From assembly GCF_963921235.1 (NCBI RefSeq), contig NC_086097.1, positions 158,784,001-158,848,000 of the forward strand: a stretch of DNA of 64,000 nucleotides, written 5' to 3'. The translations under genes were made by a program, and so were the position numbers. The notes under the pieces are model-generated. The model saw only the letters and a list, made by a program, of their open reading frames with translations. It had not been told where the DNA came from and did not search any database. This document shows, in pieces, positions 2,651-57,000 of this stretch (its first letter is position 1; each line of letters opens with the position of its first letter). Origin of the DNA: Mobula hypostoma (lineage: Eukaryota).

Positions 2651-3995
2651 AACTGAAGGAAGAGTTAGTAAGAGATTTGAAAGTGGGATGGGGAGGGGGA
2701 GATCCAAAATGATAGGAGAAGACAGGATTGGGAGGGATGGAGCCAAGAGCTGGACAGGTGATTGGCAAAGGGGATATGAAAGGGCTCATATGAAGACAGC
2801 TTATCCACTGATGTCTACTATAAGCCTACTGACTCTCACAGCTATCTGGACTATTCCTCTTCTCACCCTGTCTCTTGCAAAACTGCCATCTCCTTCTCGC
2901 AATTCCTCCGTCTCCGCCGCATCTGCTCTCAGGATGAGGCTTTTCATTCCAGGACAAGGGAGATGTCCTCCTTTTTTAAAGAAAGGGGCTTCCCTTCCTC
3001 CACTATCAACTCTGCTCTCAAACGCATCTCCCCCATTTCACGTACATCTGCTCCCACTCCATCCTCCCGCTACCCCACTAGGAATAGGGTTCCCCTGGTC
3101 CTCACCTACCACCCCACCAGCCTCCGGGTCCAACATATTATTCTCCGTAACTTCCGCCACCTCCAACAGAATCCCACCACTAAGCACATCTTTCCCTCCC
3201 CCCACTCTGCTTTCTGCAGGGATCGCTCCCTACGCGACTCCCTTGTCCATTCGTCCCCCCCATCCCTTCCCACTGATCTCCCTCCTGGCACTTATCCTTG
3301 TAAGTGGAACAAGTGCTACACATGCCCTTACACTTCCTCCCTTACCACCATTCAGGGCCCCAGACAGTCCTTCCAGGTGAGGCGACACTTCACCTGTGAG
3401 TCGGCTGGGGTGATATACTGCGTCCGGTGCTCCCGATGTGGCCTTCTATATATTGGCGAGACCCGACGCAGACTGGGAGACCGCTTTGCTGAACACCTAC
3501 GCTCTGTCCGCCAGAGAAAGCAGGATCTCCCAGTGGCCACACATTTTAATTCCACATCCCATTCCCATTCTGACATGTCTATCCACGGCCTCCTCTACTG
3601 TAAAGATGAAGCCACAGTCAGGTTGGAGGAACAACACCTTATATTCCGTCTGGGTAGCCTCCAACCTGATGGCATGAACATCGACTTCTCTAACTTCCGC
3701 TAATGCCCCACCTCCCCCTCATACCCCATCCATTATTTATTTTTATACACACATTCTTTCTCTCACTCTCTTTTTTCTCCCTCTGTCCCTCTGACTATAC
3801 CCCTTGCCCATCCTCTGGGTTCCCCCGCCCCATCTTTCTCCCGGGACCTCCTGTCCCATGATCCTCTCATATTCCTTTTGCCAATCACCTGTCCAGCTCT
3901 TGGCTCCATCCCTCCCCCTCCTGTCTTCTCCTATCATTTTGGATCTCCCCCTCCCCCTCCCACTTTCAAATCTCTTACTAACTCTTCCTTCAATT

Positions 3996-5439: not shown

Positions 5440-6492
5440 GACAGAGAATAGGGGCAGAAGGTAATTATTCTGGTTAATGGTCTATGACAATTGTGTTCCA
5501 CGAGGATTGGTGCTGGGACTTCTGTTGTTTGTGATATATATCAATGATTTGGACGAAAAGGTAGATGGATGGATTAGCAAGTTTACAGGCATCACTAAAA
5601 TTGGTGGCGTTGTGGACAGTGTAAAGGCCTATTAAACTATACAGAGGGGTACAGATCAGTTACAGACATGGGCAGAAAAGTGGCAGACGGAGTTAAATCC
5701 GGGCAAGAGTGAGGTGTTGCACTTTGAGAGGTAAGGCGAAAAAATAAAGTATATAGTTAATAGTGGACCTCATTAGGTATGAGGTATGGAAGGATCCTGG
5801 ACTCCAGGACCGTAGTTCACTGAAAGTGGTTACGCAAGTGGACAAGGTAATAAGGAGGGGTATGGCATGCATGACTTTATTAATAGAGATCTTGAATATA
5901 AGAATAAGGAAGTCTTGCTGTAGCTAAATAAAACTTTAGTCAGAATGTACTTTGAGTATTCCTCGCAGTTCTGTTTGCCCTTTTATAGGAAGGATATGGA
6001 GACTGTAGAGAAGGAACAGAAGAGGTTTATCATGTTGCTGCTTGGATTAGAGGGTATAGGCATTAAGGAAAGTTTGGACAAATTTGTGTTGGTTTCCCTA
6101 GAGTGTCGGAGGCTAAGGGAAGACCTTGTAGAGGTGTGTTTTAAATAAATGAAAGGAGGCATAGATATAGAAGACAGAATCTTTGTTCCAAGGTAGAAAT
6201 GTCAAACAGAAGAAGACATGCTTTTAAAGTTATAGGGGGAAAGTTTAAACATGACAAGAGTGGCAAGTTTTTTTTTGTGCAGAGAATGGTAGGTGTCTGG
6301 AATGGGTTATGAGGAATAGTAGTGAAATGAGGCAGTCTTGGGGCATTTAAAATGATTTTAAAATTGACACATGAATATGAAGGGACTAGAGGGATATGGA
6401 TGTTAGCTGAAGGATGATAATTAGTATAAACTGGCATCAAGATCATCACAATGTTGTGGGCTGAATGATTAGTCCTGTTCTGTGTTCTATAA
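5440..6492 (+). mobile_element. CR1 LINE 3' fragment (degenerate)
   Basis: RT remnants (VP.GLVLGLLLFVIYINDLD, FCLPFYRKDMETVEKEQKRF, SLECRRLREDL) and a CR1-type 3' tail (cctgttctgtgttctat). Confidence 0.8.
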
Positions 6493-7879: not shown

Positions 7880-9522
7880 TGCACACAAAATGCTGGAGGA
7901 ACTCAGCAGGCCAGGCAGCATCTATGGAAAAAAGTTAAGAGTTGACCTTTTGGGCCGAGACCTTCATCAGGTCTGGAGAAAAAAGATGAGAAGTCAGAGT
8001 AAAAAGCTGAGGAGAAAGGAGGAAGAAATTCAAGGTGATAGGTGAAACTGGGTGCGGGGGTGGGGGTGGGGGAAGAGGTGAGGAAAAGAGCTGGGAAGTC
8101 AATTGGTGAAAGAGATAAATAGCTGGAGAAGAGGAATCTGATAGCAGAAGACAGAAGGACAAGGAAGAAAGGGAAGTGGCAGGAGCACCAGAGAGAGGTG
8201 ATGGGCATGTAAGGAGATATGGTGAGACATGGGAATAGGAAATGGGCGAAGGGTGGGGGGCATTTCTGGAAATCTGAGGATTCAATGTTCATTCCATCAG
8301 GTTGAAAGCTACCCAAACGGAATATAAGATGTTGTTTCTTCAACCTGAGTGTGGCATCATTGCGGCAGTAATGGAGGCCATGGACTGACGTGATGGAATG
8401 GGAATGGGAAGTGGAATTGGAATGGCGAAGCAGTTTCCTAATCTACGTTGAGTCTCACCGATGTACAGGAGGGTGCATGGTATACAGTAGCTGACCTCCA
8501 AACGACTCACAAGTGAAGTGTTGCCTCACCTGGAAGAACTGTTTGAGGACCTGAATGGTAGTGATGGAGGAAGTGTAGAGGCAGATGTAGCACTTGTTTC
8601 ACTCGCAAGGATAAGTGCCAGGAAGGAGATCAGAGAAGAGCAACAAATGGACAAAGGAGTCGCGTAGGGAGCGATCCCTGCAGAAATCAGAAAGTGAGGG
8701 GCGGGGGTGTTGGGGAAAGATGAGCTTAGTGTTGGGATCCTGTTGGAGATGGAGGAAATACAGAGAGTTATGTGCTGGACATGGAGGCTGGTGGGATGGT
8801 AGGTGAGGACAAGAGGAACCCTTTCAGTGGCGGGAATATTGAGTGAGGACAGACTTACGCAAAATGAATGAGATGCGGTTGAGGACAGGGTTGATGGTGG
8901 AGGAAGGGAAGCCCTTTTCTTTGAAGAAGGAGGACATCTCCTTAGTTCTGGAATAAAAAGCCTCATCCTGAGAGCAAATGTGTCAGAGACAGAGGAAGTG
9001 AGAGAAGGGGATGGTATTTTTACAAGTACTAGGGTGGGAAGAGGTATAGTCCAGCTAGCTGTGAGAGTTCGTGGGTTTATAAAAGACATCGGTAGAGAAA
9101 CTGAGCCAGAGATAGAGACAGAGAAATCGAGAAAGGGGAGGGACGTGTCAGAAATGGACTAGGTAAATTTGAGGGCAGGGTGAAAGATGGAGACAAATTT
9201 GATGAAGTCGACGAGCTCCGCATAGTCAGGAAGCAGCACCAATGCAATTGTCAATGTCAATGTATCAGTGTAGGCCTGGAACATAGGCTGTTCTACATAG
9301 CCGACAAAAAGGCAGGCACACCTGAGACCCATGCAAATGCCCATAGCTACACCTTTTGTTTGAAGCAAGTGAGAGGAGCCAAAGGAGAAATTATTGAGAA
9401 TGAGGACAAGTTCTGCCAGACGGTGGAGAGTGGTGGTGGAAGGGAACTGGTTGAGTCTGGTGTCCAGAAAGAAATGGACAGCTTTGAGGCCTTCCTGGTG
9501 GGGGATGGAAGTGTATAGGGAA
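7880..9522 (-). mobile_element. Penelope-like retroelement (older, degenerate)
   Basis: RT remnant LAELVLILNNFSFGSSHLLQTKGVAMG and endonuclease C-terminus QHLIFRLGSFQPDGMNIE. Terminal repeat with decayed hammerhead at about 7940-7973. Homologous to 2533-4094. Confidence 0.85.
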
Positions 9523-9899: not shown

Positions 9900-11326
9900 T
9901 GGCCACCTGAGGTTCCGAAGGACTGGAGGATGGATAATGTTGTTCCGTTGTTTAAGATAGGCTGTAAGAATAAGCCAGGAAATTGTAGGGTCGATGAGCC
10001 TGACATCAGTGGTGGATAAGTTATTGGAAGGGATCCCAGGGAATGGATATTTAAGTATTTGGATAGACAGGAACTAATTAGGAATAGTGAACATGGCTTT
10101 GTTTGTGGTAGGTTTTGTCTAACTAATCTTAAACAGTTTTTCGAGGAAGTTATTAGGAAAGTTGATGAAGGCAAGGCAGTGGACGCTGTCTACATGGTCT
10201 TTAGCAAGGCTTTTGACAAAGTCCCGCGTGGGAGGTTGATCAAGAAGGTTCAGTGGCTTGGCATTCAAGGTAAGGTAGTGAATTGGATTCGATGTTGGCT
10301 TTGCAGGAGAAGCCATAGAGTGGTAGTAAGAGGTTGCTTCACTGACTGGAGGCCTGTGACTAGTGGTGTACTGCAGGGATGGGTGCTAGGTCCGCAGTTG
10401 TTTGTCATCTATATTGATGATCTGGATGATAATGTGGTAAACTGGATCAGCAAATTTGCGGATAACACGAAGATTGGGGGTGTAGTGGATAGCGAGGAAG
10501 ACCATCAGAGCTTGCGGTGGGATCTGGACCAGCTGGAAATGGAGGTGGAATTTAATGCAGACAATTGTGAGGTGTGGCACTTTGGGAGGATTTACACAGT
10601 GAATAGTCAGGCTTTGAGGAGTACAATCGAACAGACACATAATTCCTGGGAATACAGACACATAATTCCTTCATCACAGGTATATAGGGTTGTAAAGAAA
10701 GCCTTTGGCACATTGACCTTCATAAACCAAAGTATTGATTACAGAAGTTGGGTTATGCTGGAATTGAATAAGACACTGGTGAGGCCTAACTTGGAGTATC
10801 ATATGCAGTTTTGGTCACCTACCTATGGGAAAGATGTAAACAAGGTTGAAAGAGTGCAGAGAAAATTTACAAGGATGTTGCCAAGACTTGAGGAGCTGAA
10901 TTATAGGGAAAGATTGAACAGGTTAGGACTTTATTCCCTGGAGTGTAGAAGATTGAGGGGAGATTTGATAGAGGTGTACAAAATTATAAGGGGTATAGAT
11001 AGGGTAAATGCAAACAGATTTGTTTTAACTGTGGTTGGATGAGACTAGACTGGAAGTCATGGGTTAAAGGTGAAATGTTTAAGAGGAACATAAGGGAGAA
11101 CTCCTTCACTCAGAGGGTGGTGAGAGTGTGGAATAAGCTGCCAGTGAAAGTGGTGAATGTGGGATAGATTTTAACATTTAAGAGAAGTTTGGATAAGCAA
11201 CTGGATAGGAGGGGTGTGGAGGGCTGTGGTCCTGGTACTTGTCGATGGGATAACACATATTAATAGTTCAGCATGGATTGGTTAGGCCAAAGGGCCTATT
11301 TCTGTGCTGTTATGTTCTATGACTCT
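9900..11326 (+). mobile_element. CR1 LINE, 5'-truncated
   Basis: ORF 10059-11042 has RT motifs (FSKAFDKVP, SGVLQGWVLGP, YIDDLD, KFADNTKIGG); 3' tail tgttctatgactct. Confidence 0.92.
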
Positions 11327-17314: not shown

Positions 17315-19460
17315 TAAGACCATAAGACAAAGGAGCAGAATTAGGCCATTCAGCAAATCAAGTCTGTTCCGCCATTTCATCATGGCTGATCCTGGATCCC
17401 ACTCAACCCCATACATCTGCATTCTCACCATATCCTTTGATCCCCTGACTGACCAGGAAACTCAACTTCCACCTTAAAAAAAACCACGGACTTGGCCTCC
17501 ACTGTGGTCTGTGGCAGAGCATTCCACAGATTCATTACTCTCTGGCTGAAAAAAGTTCCTCCTTACCTCTGTTCTAAAAGGTCACCCCTCAATTTTGAGG
17601 CTGTGCCCTCTAGTTTTGGATAACTCCACCATAGAAAGCATCCTGTCCACATCCACCCTATCTAGTTGTTTCAATATTTGGTAAGTTTCAAATGAGATCC
17701 CCCCACATTCTTCTAATTTCCAGTGAGTACAGGTCCAAAGCTGCCAAACGCTCCTCATATGTTAAACCCTTCATTCCCGGAATCATCCTCATAAACCTCC
17801 TCTGGACTCTCTCCAATGACAACACATCCCTTCTGAGATGTGGGGCCCAAAACTGCTGACGATACTCCAACTACGGCCTGACTAATGTCTCATAAAGGTT
17901 CAGCATTATCTCCTTATTTTTATATTCTATTCCCCTTGATATAAATGCCAACATTGCATTTGCCTTCTTTACCACAGTCTCAACCTGTAAATTAACCTTC
18001 TAGGAGTCTTACACGAGGATTCCTAAGTCCTTCTGCACCTCTGATGTTTGAAGCTTCTCCCCATTTAGATAATAGTCTACACTATTGTTGCTTTTACCAA
18101 AATGCATTATCATACATTTTGCAACACTGTATCACTAATGGCTAATGGGAATCTGCCAGTTTTTGCCCATTCTTCCAATTTGTCAAAGTCCTGCTGCAAT
18201 CACATTGCTTCCTCAGCAATACCTACCCCACCACTTATCTTCATATCATCCACAAATTTTGTCACAAAGCCATCAATTCCATTATCCAAATCATTGACAA
18301 GTAATGTGAAAAGTAGTGATCCCTGAGGAACACAACTAGACACTGGCAGCCAACCAGAAAAGGCCTCCTTTGTTCCTACGCGGTGCCTCCTGCCTGTCGG
18401 CCATTCTTCTATCCATGCCAGTATCCTTTCTGTAATGTCGTAGTATTTTATCTTGTTAAGCAGCCTCATGTTTGGCTCCTTATCAAATGCCTTCTGAAAA
18501 TCCAAGTAAATGACGTCCACTGATTCCCCTTTGTCCACCCTGCTTGTTAATTCCTCAAAGAACTCGAACTGATTTGTCAGGCAAGATTTCCCTTCACAGA
18601 AACTATGATAACTTTGACTTATTTTATCATTGGTCTTCGAGTACCCCAAAACCTCATCCTTAATAATAGACTTCAACACTTTCCCAACCACTAAGGTTAG
18701 GCTAACTGGGCTATAATTTCCTTTTTTTTTGCCTTTCTCCCTTCTTAAAGAGTGGAGCAACATTTGCAATCTTCCAGTCCTCCAGGAATTAAGTGGTTCT
18801 TGAAAGATCATGACCAATTCATCAGTTATTTCTCTCAGCACTCTGAGATGTAGTCATCTGGTCCATGGTTTTTCAGTTTGCCTAGCACTTTTTCCCTTGT
18901 AATAGCAATGACACTCTCTCCTGCTCCTTGGCACTCACGGACTTCTGGTACACTGCTAGTGTCTTCCACAGTGAAGACTGATGCAAAGTACCCATTAAAT
19001 TCATCTGCCATTTCTTTGTTCCCCATTACTACCTCACCAGCATCATTTTCCAGTTGTCCAAATACTGTATCAACTCCCTTTTACTCTTTATATAACTGAA
19101 AAAACATCTAGTATCCTGTTTTATGTTACTAGCTAGTATTTCACCTTTTCCCTTCTTATAGCCTTTTTTAGTAGCCTTTTTTAGATTTTAAAAGCTTCCC
19201 AATCATCCAACTTTCCACTCACTTTTGCTACCAAATTTGCCTTTTCCTTGGCTTTTATGCAGTCCTTAACTTCCCTTGTCAGCCACAGTTGCCTACCCCT
19301 GCCATTTGAGAACTACTTTTTTTGTGGGACGTATCTATCCTGCGTCTTGTGAACAATTCCCAAAAACTTCAACCATCTCTGCACTGCCGTCATCCCCGCC
19401 AGTATCCTCCTCCAACCCACCTGATCAAAATCCTCTCTCATGCCTCTGTAATTCCCTTTA
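17315..19460 (-). mobile_element. CR1 LINE (second subfamily), 5'-truncated
   Basis: NYSPVSLTLVVGKVLKSII, GKSCLTNQFEFFEE, YLDFQKAFDK, KFVDDMKISG, QFWAPHLRRDVLSLERVQRRF. Confidence 0.9.
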
Positions 19461-19999: not shown

Positions 20000-20952
20000 A
20001 ATCACCATTGTGACTACTGGTGTTCCACAGGGATCTGTACTGGACCTCTGCCGTTTCTGATGTATATAAATGACCTGGATCATATTGTACATTGGTGGGT
20101 TAGTGAGTTTTCAGATATTACAAAGATTCATGGTGGTGTGGATAGCACAGAAGACTGGCAAAGGATATAGTGGATTATAGATCATTTGCAGATATGGGTG
20201 GTGAAATGGCAGATAGAGTTTAACCTGGCCAAATGTGAACTGTTGCACTTGTTAAGTCAAATATAAAGAGAAATACACTGTTAAGGGCAAGACCCTTAGC
20301 AGTGTTGATGAGCAGAGGGATTTTGGGTTCTAAGTTCATAACTCTCTGAAAGTGGCTACACAGGTTGATAGGATGGTTAACAAGGCAGATGGAATGCTTG
20401 CCTTTACTAGTCGAGGCATAGAGTCACCCCAGACTCTGGGGAGGATGCAGAAGAGGTTTACCAGGATGTTGTCTGGATTAGAGGGCATGTGCTATAACGA
20501 GAGTTTGGACAAACTTGGGTTGTTTTCTCTGGAATGCAGAGACTGAGGGGAGATCTGATAAAGGTTTATGGGATTGTGAGAGGTATAGATAGAGCAGACA
20601 GATAGTATCTTTTTCTGAAATTTGGTATGTCTAATACCAGTGGACATGCACTTAAAGTAAGAGGGGGTACGTTCAAAGGAGCAGTGAGGGGCAAGTATTT
20701 TACATAGAGAGTAGTGGTGCCTGGAATGTGCTGCCTGGAGGTGTGGTGGATTTAGATACTTTAGGGACTTTTAAGGGATGCCTAGATAGGCACAAGAATG
20801 TGAGGGAAATGGTAGGATATGACCATTGTATAGACAGAAGGGATAAGTTTATTTGGCCATTTGATCATTAATTTAATTGGTTTGGCACAACATTGTGGAC
20901 CAAAAGGCCTGTCCCTGTGCTGTACTGTTCTAAGTTCTATGTCCTGTGTTCT
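20000..20952 (+). mobile_element. CR1 LINE 3' fragment
   Basis: TGVPQGSVLDL...YINDLD and MQKRFTRMLSGLEGMCYNESLDKLGLFSLE; tail ctgttctaagttctatgt. Confidence 0.85.
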
Positions 20953-26896: not shown

Positions 26897-29705
26897 GAAA
26901 CAGAGAAACATAGAAACCCTACAGCACAATACAAGCCCTTCGGCCCACAAAGCTGTGCCAAACATGTCCTTACCTTGGAAATTACCTAGGGTTACTCATA
27001 GCCCTCAATTTTCCTGAGCTCCATGTACCTATCCTGGAGTCTCTTAAAAGACGCTATTGTATCCGCCTCCACCACCGTCTCAGGCAGCCCATTCCACGCA
27101 CTCACCACTCTCTGCGTAAAGAACAAACCCCTGACATCATCTCCTCTGTACCTACATCCAAGAACCTTAAAACTGTGCCCTCTCGTGCTAGCCTTTTCAG
27201 CACTGCGAAAAACCTCTGACAATCCACATGATCAATGCCTCTGATCATCTTATACCACTCTATCAGGTCACCTTTCATCCTCCATTGCTCCAAGGAGAAA
27301 AGGCCAAGTTTACTCAACCTATTCTAATATGGCGTGCTCCCCAATCCAGGCAACATCCTTGTAAATCTCCTCTGCACCCTTTCTATGGTTTCCACATCCC
27401 TCCTATAGTGAGGCGACAAGAACTGAGCACAGTACTCCAAGTGAGGTCTGACCAGGGGGCTAAATAGCTGCAATATTACCTCTCGGCTGAAGGTCAATGC
27501 ACCGTGTGCTTTCTTAACTATAGAGTCAACCTGTGCAGCAGCTTTGAGTGTCCTATGGACTCGGACCCTAAGATCCCTCTGATCCTCCACACAGCCAAGG
27601 GTCTTACCATTAATGCTATATTCTGCCATCATATTTGACATACCAAAATGAACCACCTCACACTTATCTGGGCTGAACTCCATCTGTCACTTCTCAGTCC
27701 AGCTTTGCATCCTATCAATGCCCCACTGTAATCCCTGACAGCCCACTACACTATCCACAACACACCCAACCTTTGTGTCGTCAGCAAATTTACTAACCCA
27801 TCTCTCCAATTCCTCATCCAGGTCATTTATGAAAATCATGAAGAGTAAGGGTCCCACCACGGATCCCTGAGGCACACCACTCACTGGACACTGATCTCCA
27901 TGCAGAATATGACCCGTCTACAACCACTCTTTGCCTTCTGTGGGCAAGCCAATTCTGGATCCACAAAGCAAGGTCCCCTTGGATCTCATGCCTCCTTACT
28001 TTCTCAAAAAGCCTTGCATGGGGTAACTCATCAAATGCCTTGCTGGAATCCATATACACTACATCTACTGCTTTACCTTCATCAACGTGTTTAGTCATAT
28101 CCTAAAAAATTTCAATCAGGCTCATAAGGCACAACCTGCCTTTGACAAAGCCATGCTGACTATTCCTAATCATATTATGCCTCTCCAAATGTTCATAAAT
28201 GCTGCCTCTCAGGATCTTCTCCATCAACTTACCAACCACTGAAGAAAGACTCACTGGTCTATAATTTCCTGGGCTATCTCTACTCTCTTTCTTGAATAAG
28301 GGAACAGCATCCGCAACCCACCAGTCCTCTGGAACCTCTCCCATCTCCATTGATGATGCAAAGATCATCGCCAGAGGCTCAGCAATCTCCTCCCTCACCT
28401 CCCACATTAGCCTTGGGTACATCTCGTCTGGTCCCGGTGACATCCAATTTGATGCTTTCCAAAAGCTCTGGCACATCCTCTTCCTTAATATCTACATGCT
28501 CAAGCTTTTCAGTCCACTGTAAGTCATCCCTACAATCGCCAAGATCCTTTTCTGTAGTGAATACTGAAGCAAAGTATTCATTCAGTACCTTTGCTATCTC
28601 CTTCGGTTCCAGACACACTTTTCCACTGTCACACGCAATTGGTCCTATTCTCTCACGTCTTCCTCTTGCTCTTCACATTCTTGTAGAATTGCTTGGGTGC
28701 TTGGGGTTTTCCTGAATCCTGTCCACCAAGGCCTTCCCATGGCCTCGTCTGGCTCTCCTAATTTCATTCTTAAACTCCTTCCTGCTAGCCTTATAATCTT
28801 CTAGATCTCTATCATTACCCGGTTTTTTGAACCTTTCATAAGCTCTTATTTTCTTCTTGACTAGATTTACAACAGCCTTTGTACACCAGGGTTCCTGTAC
28901 CCTACCACCCTTCCCCTGTCTCATTGGAACGTACCTATGCAGAACTCCACGCATATATCCCCTGAACATTTGCCACATTTCTTCCATACATTTCCCTAAG
29001 AACTATTTCCAATTTATGCTTACGTTCCTGCCTGATAGCATTATATTTCCCCTTATTCCAATTAAACACTTCCCAAACTTGTCTGATCCTATCTCTCTCC
29101 AATGCTATGGTAAAGGAGATAGAATTGTGATCACTATCTCCAAAATGCTCTCCCACTGAGAGATCTGACACCTGACCAGGTTCATTTCCCAATACCAGAT
29201 CAAGTACAACCTCTCCTCTTGTAGGCTTATGTACATATCGTGTCAAGAAACCTTCTTGAACACACCTAACAAACTCCACCCCATCTAAACCCCTTGCTCT
29301 AGGGACATGCCAATCAATATTTGGGAAATTAAAATCTCCGACCACAAGAACCCTGTTATTATTACACTTTTCCAGAATCTGTCTTCCTATCTGCTCCTTG
29401 ATGTCCCTGTTACTATTGAGTGGTCTATAACAAAGACCCAGTAGAGTTATTGACCCCTTCCTGTTCCTAACTTCCACCCACAGAGACTCCATAGACAGTT
29501 CCTCCATGACTTCCTCCTTTTCTGCAGCTGTGACATTATCTCTGATCAGCAGTGCCACTCTTTTGCCTCTCTCCCTGTCCTTTCTGAAACACTGAAAGGC
29601 CTGGCACTCAAAGTAACCATTCCTGCCCCTGAACCATCCAAGTCTCTGTAATGGCCACAACATCGTAGCTCCAAGTACTGATCCATGCTCTAAGCTTATC
29701 TGCTT
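26897..29705 (-). mobile_element. CR1 LINE, about 2.8 kb (endonuclease to 3' end), frameshifted
   Basis: APE motifs (VVGDFNFPNIDW, LDLVLGN, GDSDHNSI), RT motifs (SGVPQGSVVGP, KFADDTKV) and the CR1 3' tail. Confidence 0.93.
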
Positions 29706-35750: not shown

Positions 35751-37942
35751 CCGGATCTTTATCTTTTCTGCAGGAGGCAGCCAGTGAACTGATCATACAC
35801 AGAGCACGCTTTCAGAGTTGCCTGTTAATAAAATGAGAAGTATTTGCTGGGGCAAAGAAAAATTAACAGTCTTGCTGTTGAAAATGAGAGTACCACATAA
35901 GCGAAAATTGCTTTGGTATGGTGCAGTTGTAATCAATAGCTGTTAGCAAGATTTAAGTAGGTGTGATGAAATGCTGCCTTAAAGTACCCACAGAATAAAT
36001 GGCATTCCCGCCTAAAAAGGGGAGAACTCTTGAAATGTGTTTATTGCTGTCAACAAATTTTAATAAGGTTGTTCCTTGTTGACAGCAAGTGCAATAAAGA
36101 AATGGGATTATAGAGGCAGAAGCTTTTGAAAATTCTCTTATGCTAAATTACTGACTGGCTGGCAAACGAGCTGCTCTTTGTTTGTGCTCAGATCCATAAG
36201 GTTTTGTCTGTGCATGCTTGCCTGCGTAATTTTTTCAGATGGCTTATCAGTGGGCTAATGAACAGATCTGGAGCAGAAAAGAATTCTCTTCATTACTTCT
36301 GTCCTTGTGCAGCACTAAATATATAAATGTATTGGTCTCATGTTGGAGGTTATTCACTGCTCAGTTCTTCACTTAACAGACTGTTCTCCAGCCACAAACT
36401 GGTAGGCTCTTTCCCTGAAGGAGGGAAGGACCGAATGAATCATTTAGCTATCTGCATTTTACAAATTACGAAATCAAAACTTTTGTTTTAGGAAAAAATA
36501 CCTGGTTGACTGCATCTGGAGCATTTGGTCCTAGACACCTTATACAGGAAGGACTTGGAGGTTTTGGGAAGTGTACAGAAGAGGTCTACCAAGGTGCTGC
36601 CTGGAATAGAGGGAAAGTTAGACACTGGAAAAGTTAGAAAAGTATGAATTCTATGTTGTGAGTTCAGGCACAGAGGTTGTCATATATGAAATGTCTACCT
36701 GAGGGTTGACCCCAGAATAAAACTGAAAAACTATGCACCAGCCATGAAAAATATGTTATCTATTTCTCCTTCCTTGACTTGGTACTTTGCATTTCTTTAG
36801 GTTGCTTTTACTTCTGCATTTCCTGGCTCTGATCTCAAGGCACAAATTGCTCTCTCTTCAGTCTATGCTCCTGCTTTTTTTTTCCCCACCTTCATGTTTC
36901 TTGTCAATTCACTCAGTCACTTGGATACATCCAAGCTTGGAGGGATCTTAGTGTATATTTTTCCTTTCTCCTGAGTATTATATCTTGCTTGATAAGCAAA
37001 ATGTCACAAAGGCCAGAACATATGTGCACACTCAATAAATGCTGGGTTTAATCACCAGGTTAGACAACAACTGGAAATAAAAACATGGTTAATGGATCAG
37101 ATATTGCCTGTAGAGGGATGCTTGAGCTATGACAAAGAGTCTTGGGCAGGGTACTCATTCCCATGTTACACATCCTGTGTAGTTTTAACAATGTCATTTT
37201 TAATGTTCTTTTTAATAGTGGCAGCATGTTTGATGGGTTTGTTTTTCTGACAGACAGAAAATGCATTGCAAAAAGGACCTAGATACAGAAATAGGTAGCG
37301 AAACTGCTGTTTTCTTAGTGGAAGCATGGCAGCAATGAGGATAGATTCCAGGAAGGTGTGGAATTGGGGTTATTATGTTTTGTAACCTCAAAATATTAAA
37401 GTAATTCAAAGGAAAACACGGAAGTCTGAAATGCAGGTCTAACTTTGTGTTTACTTTAAATGAGACATGAACATATCACGTGCTACCATGATGACATTTG
37501 CAATTCATATATTTTTACATATAACCTGTAGTGAATTGCTTAAACAAACAAGAATGCTTAATCAACAACATATTTACACGATTACTCAAATATTACCTGA
37601 GATGTCAAATACACAACACTTCGCCTTGCTTTGCAACAAGCTCCCCTCAATTGTGAATGCATCTCAACTATATACGAGTATATTATATAATACAGCAATT
37701 ATATACAGATATCCACAGCGTAGTAAATTTTAAATTGTACCATTCAGACCTAAAGGTTTAATTCCTGTGGAGGATTTCTTCACTCTTGTGGGATAAAGTC
37801 ATTCCTGACAAGGGCAGTCACTCTGAGTTCCAGGTAAAACTCAAGGTTGTGAAAGCAGTCTCAGATTCTAGGGCCTCCTCTGCTGTGGTTGTACGAGTTG
37901 ACTCTGAGACTGCAGGAAGTGGTTCTGACAGTGGTAGCCAAT

Positions 37943-38479
37943 TTTCTCCTTCCTTTTTCTTCCAGTTTGTGCATTTTTATCTTGGGGAGGTGCATTTAGT
38001 TCGCTGGAGTATTCTCTTATTAATCCTTTATTGCTTCCTTTATGATCTGATCTTTCCTCGTGGTGTCTGCATCCAAAATATCATCCGATGAATCAACTGT
38101 TTTCATATATCCATTGACCCCTTTCTTTTTGGATTTCCATTAATGCAGCCGGGCTTTGGTCTTTGCATCTACTTTTACAAACAGCTTTTAGTCTTGTATT
38201 TAATGTACACAGAGTAGATTCTAGTTCTTTATACTCACAAAGGTTGAATGCTTGTAAATTTCCTAAAGCTCTTTGAACTCTCTTCCAGCTTAATTCAAAG
38301 CCACGTTTCGCAAGTAACTGCCCGATTAAACTATTAGAAGCTCTTGCAGATATGTTGCCTACAAAAACTGTTGCAGTTGAACCAGCACTTTTATCACTTT
38401 CATGCTTCCTCTGAGCAGCATGGTCTTTCCTTGGTCCAATATGCTTTCCAACCACAGGCACAGAGGTTGGCACCAATGC
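37943..38479 (-). pseudogene. RBM25: Processed (intron-less) RBM25 fragment: RRM and downstream helical region
   Basis: ALVPTSVPVVGKHIGPRKDH..TATVFVGNISARASNSLIGQLLAKRGFELSWKRVQRALGNLQAFNLCEYKELESTL. After a frameshift: KLFVKVDAKTKARLH*WKSKKK..RKDQIIKEAI..LIREYSSELNAPPQ. Matches recalled RBM25 (VLVPTVSMVGKHLGARKDH..TTVFVGNISEKASDMLIRQLLAKCGLVLSWKRVQGASGKLQAFGFCEYKEPESTL..LIREYSSELNAP). Confidence 0.9.
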
Positions 38480-39960
38480 CTGTTTGTCCTCTGTTGAGCA
38501 ACAGTTCATGGTGTTCTGCATAGAGACAGTTGTGGCGTCATCCAGCACCTTTCTAAATTCACTTTTTCAGTTGGTTTCATTGCAGGGGATGTGGCATGCA
38601 AATGGTGGATGGATCTCTAATCAAGTTCTAGTTGTCTCAGCCAACCATGTCCCCCACAATGCTGGTCCTTTTGATTAACACATGCAAGATCAATGTGGCT
38701 TGCTGATTGTTGTATTTCAGTGTCACAAATGTCATTCCCTTAGGAGTTATCTTTTCTCCTGTATAAGTTCTTAGTTGAATATCTGCAGGCTTCAGTTTGT
38801 TATCTTTGAAATACCTCTCAAACTCATTTTGTGGAATAGCTGAAACTGCCATGCCTGTGTCCAACTTAATTTTAATTAATTTGCTATTTGCTTCTGATGT
38901 AAGCCATGTTGCTCAACTGTTGCTAATTTTCACACGGTAAATCTCCAGGTTACACAGTCCTGTGTCACTCTCATCATTACTAGATTTTTCATAAACAGCA
39001 TGCAGATCAGTGCTCTCTTTACAACTGTAACTTGACTTTTTAGCTTTTTCTCTTTTCAGAGCAGTCCATTTACTTTGTCTGTCTGATATACGCTTTGTAG
39101 GTATCCTACATTGATACATTTTCGACATGTTTTGCCTTTAAACCTGTATTGGCCTGTTTGTGAGCCTGTACCACAATGGTAACACAATTTGTTCAGCCAG
39201 GCAAGCCTCTGTCTAGATGCTGCATTTGCGTTCACACTCACTTTCATTCCAGATTGCAATTGCATTTCTGCCTGTGGTTTCGATTGAAATAGCTATTTCA
39301 ATTGTTCTTTTAAATGTCTGCTGGCTTCAGTTGAATGCTTTCTTGTAAGAATCCACAAACTAAGTGATCTCTCAGTACAACATTAAGCCCATTACCAAAT
39401 TGACAATGCTGAGACAATCTCTTCAATTCAGCCATGGACTCCCCTTCTTTTTGATTCTGCTTATGAAACCTAAAGTATTCTGCAATCAACAGTGGCTTCC
39501 ATTCTAAATGTTCCTGCATCACTTTCTCAATATCAGCAAAGCTCATTTTGGAGGTTTGCTTAGAAGCAAACTATACACCTTTAATCCTTATTTGCTCAGC
39601 AAAATTAGTACTCATTTCTCATTGGCTATTTCATTTGATTCAAAAATATTGTTCAATTTGCTTAGTATATGAAGTCCATGTACCTGTTGTGTAATCAAAT
39701 GTATCTATCTTCCCAATGCAGCCAGCCATTTTTGCTTTTATTTATGATTATTATCACCCAGTAATCACTGTTTATGAACCCATAAATTCTTCCATTCACT
39801 TACTTTTTTAATAAAAACTTAATCATGTCTTCTGAAGAACTCGTGCTGGCTGCTTTTATTTTTAACTTGACCGTCTCTGCACGTGCTGGGCTGTGTCTTT
39901 ACTCGGTGCGTTTTTTTAGTTCGAACATCTCACAGCTCAGTAGCCATCTCAGGTTCATTA

Positions 39961-41965
39961 TAAATGGTAGGGTGAAGGAACCATGGGTGACAAGTGAGGT
40001 GGAAAATCTAGGCAGGTGGAAGAAGGCAGTATACATGAGGTTTAGGAAGCAAGGATCAGATGGGTCTATTGAGGAATATAGGGAAGCAAGAAAGGAGCTT
40101 AAGAAGGGGCTGAGAAGAGCAAGAAGGGGGCATGAGAAGGCCTTGGTGAATAGGGTAAAGTAAAACCCCAAGGCATTCTTCAATTATGTGAAGGAAAAAA
40201 GGATGACAGGAGTGAAGGTAGCACCGATTAGAGATAAAGGTAGGAAGATGTGCCTGGAGGCTGTGGAAGTGAGCGAGGTCCTCAATGAATACTTCTCTTC
40301 GGTATTCACCAATGAGAGGGAACTTGATGATGGAGAGGACAATATGAGTGAGGTTGATGTTCTAGAGCATGTTGATATTAAGGGAGAGAAGGTGTTGGAG
40401 TTGTTAAAATACATTAGGACGGGTAAGTCCCGGGGCCTGACGGAATATTCCCCAGGCTGCTCCACGAGGCGAGGGAAGAGATTGCTGAGCCTCTGGCTAG
40501 AATCATTATGTCCTCGCTGTCCACGGGAATGGTACCGGAGGACTGGAGGGAGGCAAATGTTGTCCCCTTGTTCAAAAAAGGTAATAGGGATAGTCCAGGT
40601 AATTATAGACCAGTGAGCCTTACATCTGTGGTGGGAAAGCTGTTGGAAAAGATTCTTGGAGATAGGATCTATGGGCAGTTAGAGAATCATGGTCTGATCA
40701 GGGACAGTCAGCATGACTTTGTGAAGGGCAAATCGTGTCTAACAAGCCTGATAGAGTTCTTTGAGGAGGTGACCAGGCATATAGATGAGGGTAGTGCAGT
40801 GGATGTGATCTATATGGATTTTAGTAAGGCATTTGACAAGGTTCCACACGGTAGGCTTATTCAGAAAGTCAGAAGGCATGGGATCCAAGGAAGTTTGGCC
40901 AGGTGGATTCAGAATTGGCTTGCCTGCAGAAGGCAGAGGGTCGTGATGGAGGGAGTACATTCAGATTGGAGGATTGTGACTAGTGGTGTCCCACAAGGAT
41001 CTGTTCTGGGACCTCTACTTTTTGTGATTTTTATTAACGACCTGGATGTGGGGGTAGAAGGGTGGGTTGGCAAGTTTTCAGACGACACAAAGGTTGGTGA
41101 TGTTGTAGATAGTGTAGAGGATTGTCGAAGGTTGCAGAGAGACATTGATAGGATGCAGAAGTGGGCTGAGAAGTGGCAGATGGAGTTCAACCCGGAGAAG
41201 TGTGAGGTGGTACACTTTGGAAGGACAAACTCCAAGGCAGAGTACAAAGTAAATGGCAGGATACTTGGTAGTGTGGAGGAGCAGAAGGATCTCAGGGTAC
41301 ATCTCCACAGATCCCTGAAAGTTGCCTCACAGGCGGATAGGGTAGTTAAGAAAGCTTATGGGGTGTTAGCTTTCATAAGTCGAGGGATAGAGTTTAAGAG
41401 TCACGAGGTAATGATGCAGTTCTATAAAACTCTGGTTGGGCCACACTTGGAGTACTGTGTCCAGTTCTGGTCACCTCACTATAGGAAGGATGTAGAAGCA
41501 TTGGAAAGGGTACAGAAGAGATTTACCAGGATGCTGCCTGGTTTAGAGAGTATGCATTATGATCAGAGATTAAGGGAGCTAGGGCTTTACTCTTTGGAGA
41601 GAAGGAGGATGAGAGGAGACATGATAGAGGTGTACAAGATAATAAGAGGAATAGATAGAGTGGATAGCCAGCGCCTCTTCCCCAGGGCACCACTGCTCAA
41701 TACATGAGGACATGGCTTTAAGGTAAGGGGTGGGAAGTTCAAGGCGGATATTAGAGGAAGGTTTTTTACTCAGAGAGTGGTTGGTGCGTGGAATGCACTG
41801 CCTGAGTCAGTGCTGGAGGCAGATACACGTGAAGTTTAAGAGACTACTAGACAGGTATATGGAGGAATTTAAGGTGGGGGGTTATATGGGAGGCAGGGTT
41901 TGAGGGTCGGCATAACATTATGGGCCCAAGGGCCTGTAATGTGCTGTACTATTCTATGTTTTCTG
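39961..41965 (+). mobile_element. Young CR1 LINE nested in the Gypsy leader
   Basis: Uninterrupted 399-aa RT ORF at 40508-41707 and 3' tail ctattctatgtttt. Splits the Gypsy leader next to the PBS. Confidence 0.95.
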
Positions 41966-44562
41966 TAAAAATTCCTCATTGCCAGTGTTATGCTTTTTAA
42001 CTTCAAAATATTAAACCAATTTAAAACAAGATATGGGAGTCCCAAATGTGGGGGGTCTAACTTCGTGCTTAAGCAAGGCACACACGTATGATGTGGTAGC
42101 ATAATGGCGTACATTATTCACATACCTTTACATATAACCTGCTGTGAATTATTTAAGCAAACAATAGTACTTAATCAACAACATATTTACAACTCTAATA
42201 CTGAAATATTAAATACACAACAGGGGCAATGGTGTCCAATTCACAATCTAGGAGGAATCTAATCAAGGAGGGAATACACAGTACATAAATAGAAGGGTGC
42301 CTTTAAGAACCTTGGATGTGTACATACTCAGCACCTCAACCCTGGATTGTCCCTCTGTGGATGGTTTCCAACATAAGTCCATCTTTCAGGTCCTTTTGAT
42401 GCAATGTTTTTCTACTTCATTCATTCTCTGTAACCACGTGATCTGATGCTTTGTACAAAGAAGGACCACCATCTTTACCATCTGTTTTTCTTTGCATGCT
42501 GATTATCATGTGGAATCACCACCCAAGCAATACCACCTCACTTTCTTGTACACTATCTCCTATTGGTGATCATTAATCAAGTCCCTCCCCCACCATGTTG
42601 TGTCCTCATCATTATGCCTGAATTTGCTGCCAGTCTGAAGTAAATCAGAAGATGTTGAAAATGCTGAGCAAGTCGAGCAGCTCCTGTGGGAAGAGAATCA
42701 GTGATAACATTTCACATTGAAGATTCATTGTCAGACCAGGAAGGAGTCTTGTTAAGCTGCAGAAGAGTCGGAGGGGGAAGATCTCTCTGAAAGTGTAAAA
42801 CTGGAGTGAACTTGGGGATAAGATTTACACCAGTTATCAGATCAATGAATGATTGGGGGCAGTTGGACATAGTTGTATATAAATTTCCATCTGATTTACC
42901 AGTGTTCTTCAGGAAAGGATATCTGCCACCGATAGCTGGTGTGTTCTGACGATGGTTTCAGATCCACTTCATGTTGTTGACTTACAAATGTTTTATGAAA
43001 TGGTCCAACAAACCACTCAACTGTATGGAGCTCACCACCATCTTCTCAAGGGAAAACAGCAAACGCTGTCCTTGCTAGAAATGACCTGATTCTGAAAAGC
43101 TGATCAAACAAAAACAAAATAGTTTTGCACATCTATAAGTAGTTGGATGTTGACCTGGTGAATCAGAACCACATAAGTATTGGTACTTATAAAGGAGTTG
43201 CAGTTCAATGTCAAGACCTCCCAACGGTCATCCATTCAGTATCAGTACAATGATGCAAGGAATTCCAGTGTGCCTATGTGATTAAACTACATTTCTATGT
43301 ACTTCGTTCTTGTTAAACAACGAGAATGAGCCACTTCAATCTGGAAAAGGGTGGTGATGGTGTTGGATATGTGACACCCACTTAATGTTTGTGACACTCA
43401 TTCCACTCTTGGGACACAGAACTGCTGAAAAATTCAGGGCAGGCTAGCCATTAAATTGCGATCCCTTCGGACGCAATTACAAAAAGGAGTTTTCTGGCTA
43501 TGGAGTGAGGAACAACAATGGAAAATAAGATATGTTAAGCAAAATTTGAAAGTGGTGGTTTTCTGCTTTACTGTTTATTAGACATAGTTCTATATAAATT
43601 AAATCCAGAATGATGTGGAAATCTCCTGAGCATGAAAATGCCTTATTAGTGTCTGTTATTTTAAGCAATAAATAGTTAATTAGTAATCTAAAATGTTTTG
43701 GTAATTCAAAGTTGATTGGATAAATGGCAAGAATGAATAGAAGAAAGCTATGGCAGCGAATTTATTATGGATGGTTAGTGAATGGTGGAAAAACAGGCAA
43801 ATGACTCGTTTAACTTACTGGGGAGGATGTGTCTGCACCACTTGAGTTCCCTTCCAAGGCTTTCTTAACTTTAAAACTACTGTCGCCATCTTGAGTATGT
43901 AGCTTTGTCAATACTTACACTTACAATGTTCCATCAGTCATTTTCTGGCCAACCTCTGACTCACAAACCAACATCCTCTGAATGTTTCCTATGATGCAAA
44001 ACATATTTGAAGAAACAGAATATGCTGGAAACATCCAGAGGGTCATGCATTATCAGTGGAAGGTGAATTCAGTTTAAGCTCAAGACCCCCTTGTCAGAAC
44101 ATGGTGAATGTTTTAAAACAGATGGTTTTCAAGTTGCAAAGAAGGTAGAATGGTGATAGTTAGAATGGTGTATAGCCTGGTATAATAAGGCAGTTAAATG
44201 TTAATTATGCTTTTGTGTCTGTGTATGTTACCTGTTGTTATAAGCAGTGTTCCCAGATATATTTTTGGGGTTCTCTATCCAGTAGCACAGCCTGACCAGC
44301 TGCCATGTTCTGTCAAGCAACACACTACAAAGACAAGAATATGTGACAACTCTCTAATAGTTTTCCATCTTTACCTGGCCTACCCTATCTCATTTATTCT
44401 ATTTGTCATATCCAGTCCTCCTGCCACCTGTTTTCTCTCTCTTGTCCTGGTCTGATGAAGGGTCTTTCACTGGAGATGATAATTCTGACAAATTTTATGT
44501 TTTATTTTAATTTCATGTTCCAGCATATTTTATGATTTTTTTGTAAGTGCAAATTATTTCCA

Positions 44563-54097: not shown

Positions 54098-57000
54098 ACT
54101 TATCTGGGTTGAACTCCATCTGCCGCTTCTCAACCCAGTTTTGCATCCAATCAATGTCCCACTGTAAACTCTGGCAGCCCTCCACACCATCCACAACACC
54201 ACCAACCTTTGTGTCATCAGCAAATTTACTAACCCATCCCTCCACTTCCTCCTCCAGGACATTTATAAAAATCACAAAGAGTAAGGGTCCCAGAACAGAC
54301 CCCTGAGGCACACGATTGGTCACCGACCTCCATGCAGAATATGACCCGTCTACAACCACTCTTTGCCTTCTGTGGGCAAGCCAGTTCTGGATCCAGAAAG
54401 CAATATCCCCTTGGATCCAACGCTTCCTTACTTTCTCAATAAGCCTTGCATGGTGTACCTTGTCAAATGCCTTGCTGAAATCCATATATGCTCTACCTTC
54501 ATCAATATGTTTAGTCACATTCTCAGAAAATTCAACCAGGCTCGTAAGGCACGACCTGCCTTTGACAAAGCCATAGTGACTACTCCTAATCATATTATCC
54601 CTCTCCAAATGTTCATAAGTCCTGCCTCTCAGGATCTTCTCCATCAACTTACCAACCACTGAAGTAAGACTCACTGGTCTATAATTTCCTGGGCTATCCC
54701 TACTCCCTTTCTTGAATAAGGGAACAACATCCGCAACCCTCCAATCCTCCAGAACCTCTCCCATCCCCATTGATGATGCAAAGATCATCGCCAGAGGCTC
54801 AGCAATCTCCTCCCTCGCCTCCCACAGTAGCCTGGGGTATATCTCATCCAGTCCTGGTGACTTATCCAATTTGATGTTTTCCAAAAGCTCCAACACATCC
54901 GCTTTCTTAACAGCTATATGCTCAAGCTTTTCAGTCCGCTGTAAGTCATCCCTACAATCACCAAGATCTTTATCTGTAGTGAATCATGAAGCAAAGTATT
55001 CATTATGTTCCTCAGCTATCTCCTCCGGTTCCATACACACTTTTCCACTGTCACACGTGATTGGTCCTATTCTCTCACGTCATATCCTCTTGCTCTTCAC
55101 ATACTTGTAGAATGCTTTGGGGTTTTTCTGAATCCTGTCTGCCAAGGCCTTCTCATGGCCCCTTCTGGCTCTCCTAATTTATTTCTTAAGCTCCTTCCTG
55201 CTAGCCTTATAATCTTCTAGATCTCTATCATTTCCCAGTTTTTTGAACCTTTCATAAGCTCTTCTTTTCTTCTCGACTAGATTTACAACAGCCTTTGTAC
55301 ACCAGCGTTCCTGCACCCTACCACCCTTTCCCTGTCTCTTTGGAACATACCTATACAGAACTCCACACAAATATGCCCTGAACATTTGCCACATTTCTTC
55401 TGTACATTTCCCTGAGAACATCTGTTCCCAATTTATGCTTCCAAGTTCTTGCCTGATAGCCTCATATTTCCCCTTACTCCAATTAAATGCTTTCCAAACT
55501 TGTCTGATCCTGTCCCTCTCCAATGCTATGGTAAAGGAGATAGAATTGTGATCACTATCTCCAAAATGCTCTCCCACTGAGAGATCTGACACCTGACCAG
55601 GTTCATTTCCCAATACTAGATCAAGCACAGCCTCTCCTCTTGTACGCTTATCTACATATTGTGTCAAGCAACCTTCCTGAAGACACCTAACAAACTCCAC
55701 CCCATCTAAACCCCCTGCTCTAGGGAGATGCCAATCGATAGTTGGGAAATTAAAATCTCCCACCACGATAACACTGTTATTATTACACTTTGCAAGAATC
55801 TGTCTCCCTATCTGCTCCTTGATGTCCCTGCCACTATTGGTAACTCTTGGCAGTGTGAAGGATCAGGGGGATCCTGGGGTCCGAGTCCATAAGACATTCA
55901 AAGCTGCTGCACAGTTTAATTCTGTGGTTAAGAAAGCATACAGTGTATTGGCTTTCATCAATCGTGGGATGGAGTTTAGTAGCTGAGAGTAATGTTGCAG
56001 CTATATCGGACCCTAGTCAGACTCCACTTGGAGTACTGTGCTCAATTCTGGTCGCCTCACTATAGGAAGGATGTGGAAACCTTAGAAAGGATGCAGAGGA
56101 GATCTACAAGACTTGGGGAACATGCCTTATGAGAATACGTTGAGTGAACTTGGCCTTTTTTCCTTGGAGCGACGGAGGACGAGAGGTGACTTGATAGAGG
56201 TGTATAAGATGATGAGAGGCACTGATCATGTGGATAGTCAGAAGCTTTTTTCTAGGGCTGAAATGGCTAACACAAGAGAGCACAGTTTTAAGATGCTGTG
56301 GAGTAGGTACAGAGGAGATGTCAGGGTGTAAATTTTTTACACAGAGAGTGGTGAGTGCATGAAATGGGCTGCCAGCGACAGTGGTGGAGGCAGATACAAT
56401 AGGGTGTTTTAAGAGACTCCTGGATAAGTACAGTGGTATGCAAAAGTTTGGGCACCCCTGGTCAAAATTTCTGTTACTGTGAATAGCTAAGCGAGTAAAA
56501 AATGAACTGATTTCCAAAAGGCAAAAAGTTAAAAATGACACATTTCTTTAATATTTTAAGCAAGAAAACTCATCAGTCCACAGGACCTGTTTCCAAATTG
56601 CATCACGCTCGTTTAGATGTTCCTTTGAACCTTTTGAATAGATCTTTTTGGCCACAATGAGCAAAGGTATGTTTGGAGAAAAAAGCTTGCAGAATTTCAT
56701 GAAAAGAACCCCTCTCCAACTGTTAAGCATGGGGGTGGATCGATCATGCTTTGGGCTTATGTTGCAGGTAGTGGCATGGGAAACATGTACTGGTAAAGAG
56801 AAATGTACTGGTAAAGGGAAATGTCAATTAAATGTCCGCAAATTCTGGAAGCAAACATCATACCGTCTGTATAAAAGCCAAAGATGAAAAGAGGATGGCT
56901 TCTACAAGGGGATAATGAACCTAAACACACCTCAAAATCCACAATGGACTACCTCAAGAGGCGCAAGCTGAAGGTTTTGCCATGGCCCATACAGTCCCCT

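Follow-up and report, generated by a model that had tools for sequence, protein, structure and literature searches.

The DNA analysed here is a stretch of 64,000 nt from Mobula hypostoma (contig NC_086097.1, positions 158,784,001–158,848,000; hereafter, the window), and its positions 37371–42222 hold, on the minus strand, a Gypsy long terminal repeat (LTR) retrotransposon that carries a piece of the host gene RBM25. We read this element, with a probability of about 85%, as a decayed copy of a non-autonomous Gypsy family in which pol has been replaced by spliced RBM25 messenger RNA (mRNA), likely in one capture through two template switches, and which was likely spread by pol-bearing sister elements.

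Organization of the element in the window

Followed along the minus strand from 42222 to 37371, the element consists of a 5′ LTR, a primer binding site (PBS), gag, protease, the RBM25 piece, the tail of pol, a polypurine tract (PPT) and a 3′ LTR; all coordinates below are on this strand unless stated otherwise. The 5′ LTR (41986–42222, 237 nt) begins with TGTTGTG, and the 3′ LTR (37371–37618, 248 nt) has ATA as its terminus; the two are 77% identical [Kimura two-parameter (K2P) distance 0.29]. They are flanked by the two copies of a target site duplication (TSD), GCCCC on the left (42223–42227) and ACCCC on the right (37366–37370), which agree at four of five bases. The PBS (41974–41985) is decayed; in better-preserved copies it reads TGGCGACGAGG, complementary to the 3′ end of tRNA-Ser(GCT). 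Of the 14 genome sites matching it, three were scanned and all three are tRNA-Ser gct genes. The decayed PPT (37619–37634) reads GCAAAGCAAGGCGAAG in the window copy as compared with GCTAAGCAGGGAGGAG in the copy at L071. TG…CA LTRs, PBS, PPT and TSD are present across the copies of the family and are decayed in this one.

The coding regions of Gypsy were mapped by tblastn with P0154, an intact fish Gypsy polyprotein. The broken gag (39000–39947, with an approximate lower bound), which contains a decayed double zinc knuckle, was placed by its open reading frames (ORFs) and by a match of 64% over P0154 residues 41–123. The aspartic protease (38640–38912), with the motif LDTG, is broken as well and matches residues 124–345 at 37%; its match to the profile gag-asp_proteas is weak (E-value 0.014, short of the cut-off). 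P0154 aligns to the window element over residues 41–345 only, ending at the protease, and no Gypsy-type reverse transcriptase (RT), RNase H or integrase was found there. Behind the RBM25 piece come the C-terminal tail of integrase and the 3′ untranslated part of Gypsy (37635–37941), and the same stretch follows integrase in pol-bearing sister elements.

Directly behind the PBS lies a 5′-truncated ORF2 fragment of a long interspersed nuclear element (LINE) at 39963–41965 on the plus strand, antisense to the Gypsy element. It is 2.0 kb long and has an RT of its own (RVT_1, E-value 2e-32); without it the Gypsy element measures ∼2.85 kb. This LINE, which we take to be a CR1 from a tail motif, is 95% identical to another copy in L165 and is missing from the sister copies of the Gypsy element, and thus was inserted later than the element itself.

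A preliminary description of this DNA had given the same order of parts and had noted the absence of RT, RNase H and the integrase core; both statements are borne out by the mapping of LTRs, gag and protease and by the end of the P0154 alignment at residue 345. The 5-bp TSD reported there exists as a pair of flanking 5-mers, imperfect at one base, and the list of internal parts was incomplete, with the LINE fragment left out of it.

The RBM25 insert and its parent gene

The host piece was identified by its match to the RBM25 protein of Bos mutus (64% over 92 amino acids, E-value 4e-25; phmmer over representative proteins), which carries RRM_1 and PWI. A Pfam scan of the window ORFs gave no RRM match on this decayed copy, and a word-index protein search with the window RBM25 ORF gave nothing at E-value ≤0.001. 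With the C-terminus of RBM25 as the query, the parent gene was found at ∼99.79–99.84 Mb of G000:C1, the same contig as that of the element. Two other routes to the parent failed: the PWI family led only to exons that we take to be SRRM1- and PRPF3-like, and presenilin synteny led to nothing within 200 kb.

In the parent, the sequence of the insert is distributed over five exons within 13 kb, and the splice joins are exact. In the window copy it opens with the last 10 nt of coding exon 2 (38528–38537), where the 5′ switch point is located; here TGCCACA (7 nt) is common with the start of Gypsy pol, and the codon frame is kept. Next come a 48-nt in-frame cassette exon (38480–38527; 42/48 identical to L061:7633-7586), coding exon 3 of 171 nt, in which the RRM starts (38309–38479; 148/171 identical to the parent), coding exon 4 of 58 nt (38251–38308; 47/58), coding exon 5, in which the RRM ends (38110–38250; 121/141), and about the first 140 nt of coding exon 6 (37969–38109). 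The last 27 positions (37942–37968) were recognized, by comparison with less shortened copies and with the parent exons, as what internal deletions have left of exon 9 and of the start of exon 8; they include the decayed 3′ switch point, which reads GAGAAGAAA in other copies. The RBM25 frame of the window copy is broken by two deletions in exon 5, of 14 nt and 6 nt.

The window copy crosses five exon joins, and the longest copies of the family, which hold ∼1.07 kb of captured mRNA, cross eight. Among 115 copies the joins are exact in 80/103 (cassette/3), 93/111 (3/4), 88/111 (4/5) and 87/110 (5/6) cases, and those that are inexact are mostly off by ≤15 nt. None of these copies matches intron sequence (150 nt of intron on either side of five exons). 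Neither poly(A) nor a TSD of its own was found around the insert, whose 3′ end lies inside coding exon 9 and is joined straight to the integrase tail.

These results agree with the preliminary description, in which the insert was taken for an intronless RBM25 segment of the RRM region lacking poly(A) and TSD, and in which a search for the parent and for crossed exon joins was called for; the insert has neither a single-exon origin nor intron content. Of the pieces that had been placed behind the motif LDDATTV, the RBM25 segment stands, and the ∼45-nt linker is in fact the 48-nt RBM25 cassette exon preceded by 10 nt of exon 2.

In the parent the 48-nt exon lies within intron 2, with a pyrimidine tract and an AG acceptor ahead of it and a CAG/GT donor behind it, and it keeps the frame; its peptide was found in none of the 153 proteins compared. 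Upstream of it, the same intron holds another in-frame cassette exon (L062:2476-2505, minus strand), which is 30 nt long and is bounded by an AG acceptor and a GT donor. Contigs of runs X9 and X13 join this 30-nt exon straight to exon 3, and the element has the 48-nt exon without the 30-nt one; the two may be alternatives to each other. A contig from another organism (X13) aligns to the intron just upstream of the 48-nt acceptor (L061:7626-7840) but to little of the remaining intron sequence there; this segment is perhaps a conserved splicing element. Among the sequencing runs listed for the parent gene, none is recorded as RNA. The nature of the contigs from the four runs that were aligned to the gene is uncertain: the joint of the 48-nt cassette and exon 3 occurs in X3 and X5, and the joint of exons 3 and 4 in all four. 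Such joints could stem either from mRNA or from copies of the element, and therefore we did not use them as indicators of present-day splicing or of presence in other species.

Two solo LTRs of the family (L066:1647-1883 and L069:1403-1633), both oriented antisense to RBM25, are found upstream of its first coding exon, at distances of 36 and 66 kb. A tRNA-Ser(GCT) gene, of the predicted primer type, is located ∼140 kb from RBM25 (G000:C1:99650438-99650459), probably by chance.

Size and common organization of the family

The exact 17-mer that spans the 5′ Gypsy/RBM25 junction has 292 matches in the genome (control 0), and its pol-type counterpart has 672 (control 0). All 30 loci fetched with the junction 17-mer contain RBM25 exons, as compared with none of 30 pol-type loci, and at least two of exons 3–6 are present in 58 of 60 further junction loci. 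The exact motif is retained by 14 of 62 sampled chimeric copies, and calibration with this fraction gives a copy number of 1,293 (835–2,258). This number is probably low, because the calibration samples are best matches and only 1 of the 24 loci picked by exon 5 keeps the motif. The family has at least 292 copies, and probably one to two thousand, the calibrated figure being roughly 1,300–2,400.

Broader searches yielded 3,541 first-look candidates for a query spanning the junction (39 other scored loci have identities of 77–81%) and 2,361 candidates, a figure that is not a copy number, for the parent exon 5 as the sole query. All 24 best exon-5 matches are spliced and have Gypsy protease and/or tail adjoining, none lying outside a Gypsy context. 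RBM25 exons occur in 17 of 29 loci picked by protease alone, and several exons occur in 11 of 29 picked by tail alone.

The LTR-gag-protease-RBM25-tail-LTR build is repeated at many loci; the two LTRs of the window copy are thus those of a single element, not of two unrelated ones, the outcome that the preliminary description had named as refuting its reading. Element ends were examined in 41 copies; both ends were located in 19 and were clear in 15, eight of which have a TSD matching at ≥4/5 bases (chance 2%), every site being different. Mean identity is 86.6% to the parent and 82% among the copies (175 copies). Segmental duplication is ruled out by the differing flanks and TSDs and by the highest pairwise identity among the 175, 89%. 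The LTR-LTR K2P distance has a median of 0.24 (n = 16, range 0.165–0.33), and an unbroken frame from the cassette to exon 5 is kept in 1 of 101 copies; as far as sampled, the family is old and dead. A non-autonomous family carrying RBM25 had been considered possible in the preliminary description; its existence is confirmed, and its extent was understated there.

Pol-bearing sisters and the switch points

Loci without RBM25 run on into pol. Among twenty of them that were fetched, several have pieces of RT, RNase H and integrase in Gypsy order with the same flanks, and these sisters have LTR, gag, protease and tail in common with the chimeric copies. L157 aligns to P0154 residues 1–1132 in the order protease-RT-RNase H-integrase; in L157, L165 and L168 the flanks that enclose RBM25 in chimeras enclose 2.4–2.6 kb of pol. 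RBM25 thus replaces pol rather than interrupting it. Four other pol-type sisters (L122, L158, L161 and L166) have themselves lost large internal parts of the region between protease and integrase tail, and further non-autonomous derivatives without host sequence may exist.

Comparison with these sisters made it possible to map both joins, and each falls on a microhomology. The 5′ join of the chimera, GATGA-TGCCACA-ACT/GTCTCC, is in frame; its counterpart is GATGA-TGCCACA-GCAGTG in pol and ACTCC-TGCCACA-ACT/GTCTCC in RBM25 mRNA. At the 3′ join GAGAAGAAA (9 nt) is common to exon 9 and the integrase tail. Random pairings as long as these 7 and 9 nt occurred in 0.044% and 0.004% of 200,000 trials. 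The three bases ahead of the cassette were counted by eye in 17 chimeric loci picked by protease: 10 of these have the ACT of exon 2, and none has the GCA of pol. Spliced exons and microhomology at both joins support the capture of host mRNA by template switching, as had been proposed in the preliminary description.

The sequence of events could be as follows. A spliced RBM25 mRNA isoform with the 48-nt cassette exon would have been packaged together with the RNA of an element. During reverse transcription RT would have switched from the element to this mRNA at GAGAAGAAA in the integrase tail, copied ∼1.07 kb of it, starting in exon 9 and proceeding backwards as far as the end of exon 2, and re-entered the element at TGCCACA just behind the protease. 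The product would have retained both LTRs, PBS, PPT, gag and protease, and thus could have been mobilized in trans; pol-bearing sister elements would likely have copied it to one to two thousand sites.

Three other origins of the insert have to be weighed against this one. The same family, amplified in the same way, might have started with a capture at the DNA level, if a break in a genomic Gypsy element was filled with RBM25 cDNA by microhomology-mediated repair, with pol deleted. Such repair is expected to leave these microhomologies as well, and an insert free of poly(A) and of flanking duplication, so the anatomy alone is not decisive; yet free cDNA and a 2.5-kb deletion would be required simultaneously, and the sense orientation together with the in-frame 5′ join would be due to chance (about 1 in 6). 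Moreover, template-switch retrocopies regularly show this very anatomy in the part of PMC5131818 that treats them. We consider repair unlikely.

In a LINE-rich genome with one LINE within the window copy itself, the insertion of a LINE-made processed pseudogene into a Gypsy element, followed by the spread of that element, may come to mind. This origin is very improbable, however, given an insert that has neither poly(A) nor a LINE tail and ends within a coding exon, that stands in for pol with microhomology to pol at both ends, and that was seen outside a Gypsy context in 0 of the 24 loci picked by exon 5. In addition, CR1 LINEs are described in the relevant part of PMC8232201 as generally unable to produce retrocopies.

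Finally, by read-through of the kind known for retroviral oncogenes, an element residing in RBM25 intron 2 could have been spliced to the cassette, with a template switch needed for the 3′ join only. The 5′ join is indeed 3–10 nt from a splice acceptor, and the family has left the two solo LTRs upstream of the RBM25 coding exons. Still, the 10 nt ahead of the cassette agree with the end of exon 2 at 10/10 positions and with pol at 8/10, which means that exon 2 and the cassette were joined in the template beforehand. The solo LTRs, for their part, are antisense to the gene, and none was found in intron 2. We give read-through hardly any credence.

Deletion series and suggested exchange with helpers

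The 175 copies were divided by form into 24 long (with exon 7, parts of exon 8 and the start of exon 9 kept), 41 medium, 78 short and 32 unclassified ones. The window copy has the short form, in which exon 6 is followed directly by the start of exon 8 and this in turn by exon 9. The part from the cassette to exon 6 is retained in all three forms, and the trimming affects exons 7–9.

Protease and tail each occur as two types, A and B. In the 115 copies, the long forms have protease type A in 12/12 and tail type A in 9/9 of those typed, medium forms are mostly B/A (protease/tail), and short forms have all four combinations (11, 8, 9 and 16). Among pol copies, protease is A in 32, B in 6 and mixed in 8 (n = 46), and tail is A in 9 and B in 7 (n = 16); both types of both regions are thus found in chimeric and pol copies alike. 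A protease tree of 104 copies is star-like, and its supported branches force at least three changes of label. This pattern suggests a single capture, by an element with a type-A backbone, and later deletions and recombination with helpers. In terms of the template-switch history, the purine-rich exons 6–9 would have been shortened at short repeats during amplification, which would have given rise to the long, medium and short forms; the family would have swapped flanks with its pol-bearing relatives and then become extinct, and the LINE would have entered the window copy later.

Several observations weigh against this history or limit it. All the pol-bearing sisters inspected are broken, and no intact helper was seen among them. 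The 3′ microhomology lies in purine-rich sequence of low complexity, which makes the chance figure given above too optimistic. The copy estimate leans on the 14/62 fraction (a second sample gave 1/24) and on a count of first-look candidates. In 7 of the 15 elements with clear ends the TSD matches at ≤3 bases, and in 22 of the 41 examined two ends could not be located. In the protease tree 7 of 101 inner branches are supported; the A/B typing used short motifs that we chose ourselves, and parallel mutation could contribute to it. The selection test described below has few informative sites and leaves a hint in favour of the RRM, so that the claim of a passenger insert is weak. The template switch, the co-packaging and the mobilization in trans are themselves deduced from anatomy.

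Tests for selection on the captured RRM

Near-fixed differences from the parent comprise 16 synonymous changes and 1 replacement. This ratio is to be expected from constraint on the host gene together with a short stem, and it fits a short gap between capture and amplification. For variants within the insert, the replacement to synonymous ratio is 17:6 at mid frequency vs 598:125 among rare ones (p = 0.27; p = 1.0 and 0.32 on 115 copies), whereas in the protease of the same copies it is 15:12 vs 342:60 (p = 0.0004). Variants linked at uncorrected p < 1e-4 have replacement to synonymous ratios of 1:3 in the RRM, 9:1 in the rest of the insert and 7:5 in the protease (175 copies); for the RRM contrast a Fisher test, made by hand and post hoc, gives ∼0.04. 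None of the RBM25 variants remains linked once the threshold is corrected, in a test that has low power because the family is star-like.

No insertion or deletion between the cassette and exon 5 is common to more than three copies. A 14-nt deletion in exon 5 is found at about one place in five copies, L001, L022 and L086 and, one base off, L012 and L090; either it arose more than once at a short repeat, or these copies form a small subfamily that spread with a broken RRM, a case that would matter for the question of selection.

The high copy number would be explained if the captured RRM was used, i.e. if a Gag-protease-RBM25 fusion was translated and aided the element in RNA binding, packaging or processing. 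The codon-in-frame 5′ join speaks for such use, as do the retention of the cassette-to-exon-6 part while exons 7–9 were trimmed, the scarcity of common insertions and deletions in this part and, uncorrected and post hoc, the low ratio of linked variants in the RRM. On the other hand, mid-frequency and rare variants of the insert are alike in a comparison that does separate them in the protease, linked RBM25 variants vanish on correction, the repeats in exons 7–9 account for the trimming, and pol-bearing sisters without the insert are the commoner ones (672 vs 292 exact matches). Use of the RRM is therefore possible but doubtful, and the RBM25 piece is most likely a passenger. We hold with the same reserve that an in-frame RRM fusion might have helped a defective element to reach well over a thousand copies while swapping flanks with helpers, which would make it a germline counterpart of an oncogene-carrying retrovirus.

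Other repeats in the window

The window contains six other LINE fragments that we take to be CR1-like (27019–28783, 54098–56430, 9911–11005, 5493–6065, 18462–18783 and 20442–20737); they differ in age and have 65–72% identity to the LINE inside the Gypsy element. There are also two Penelope-like fragments, one at 2780–3700 with a weak GIY-YIG match (E-value 2.5e-4, short of the cut-off) and one at 8529–9158, labelled by likeness seen by eye.

Significance and comparison with known systems

LTR-mediated retroposition in animals is known mainly from cases with a single copy or few copies. The family described here shows that a conserved single-copy gene can, through one captured fragment of its mRNA, give rise to a major repeat of a vertebrate-type genome. 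Since capture junctions, the order of deletions and signs of exchange with helpers are preserved, the life history of a gene-carrying non-autonomous element becomes readable from sequence. The copies also preserve an RBM25 splice isoform from the time of capture, and so point to a cassette exon absent from the 153 proteins compared. A question that came from plants can now be tested in an animal: would small RNAs directed against a thousand copies of an element hit the donor gene too? In practical terms, such copies will confuse read mapping, repeat masking and RBM25 gene counts.

Acutely transforming retroviruses are replication-defective and helper-dependent and have a gag-host fusion frame, in all of which the RBM25-Gypsy chimera resembles them. 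The RBM25 family differs in being a germline Gypsy element with no sign of env and with a putative passenger as its cargo.

The nearest named protein is a fish polyprotein of the K02A2.6 type (53% over the protease region). A tRNA-Ser PBS, a 5-bp TSD and short LTRs are features shared with the Mag lineage of Ty3/Gypsy, where, according to the relevant part of PMC3286476, the primer is tRNA-Ser or tRNA-Leu; host exons in place of pol set the family apart from the Mag elements presented there. By its PBS, TSD and LTR features, the family appears Mag-like. Its defective and pol-bearing members have sequence types in common, as do the recombining autonomous and non-autonomous partners in the part of PMC6894440 devoted to them; unlike in those, the defective partner bears a host gene, and recombination is suggested by typing rather than by new insertions.

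The closest parallel is found in the LTR-mediated retrocopies of Tan et al. 2016 (PMC5131818), to be compared here within the limits of the sections of that paper that deal with them. In these retrocopies, as in ours, partial spliced mRNA replaces internal ORFs with microsimilarity at both switch points (median 6 bp), the insert has no poly(A) or TSD, both LTRs are retained, and secondary copying leaves common switch points at different insertion sites. As far as its sequence goes, the RBM25-Gypsy family has every feature of an LTR-mediated retrocopy in those sections. Two Drosophila cases there have more than one insertion site, with 18 sites for nine retrocopies, whereas a single RBM25 capture is present in at least 292, probably more than 1,000, copies with deletion subfamilies. 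Maize Bs1, as it appears in the same sections (PMC5131818), is likewise a non-autonomous LTR element with host exons in the place of pol and with switch points common to all copies; it is a plant element of one to five copies with three donor genes, whereas the RBM25-Gypsy family draws on a single donor gene, an RBM25 of vertebrate type, and its copies are hundreds of times as many. The HERV-K/FAM8A1 chimera described there (PMC5131818) is also a vertebrate LTR element with captured host mRNA and microsimilarity at the joins, although it is a retrovirus and a single pseudogene case, as compared with a large Gypsy family.

Capture by LTR elements is called occasional in the pertinent part of the reviews (PMC6431247). 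In conifers, according to the part of PMC13477047 concerned with them, exon fragments captured by transposable elements are very many, with ∼39 elements per donor gene on average, and thus amplification of captured exons is already known in plants. The literature on RBM25 with retrotransposons, on the capture mechanism and on isoforms (a scope that leaves aside the repeat databases Repbase and Dfam and most subscription papers) gave no description of the RBM25-Gypsy family, and no paper was found that pairs RBM25 with elasmobranch or RNA-binding protein 25 with shark. The mechanism is thus already known from what Tan et al. 2016 present of it; what is notable is the scale of the family, far beyond the one to five copies of the cases compared, and its readable history.

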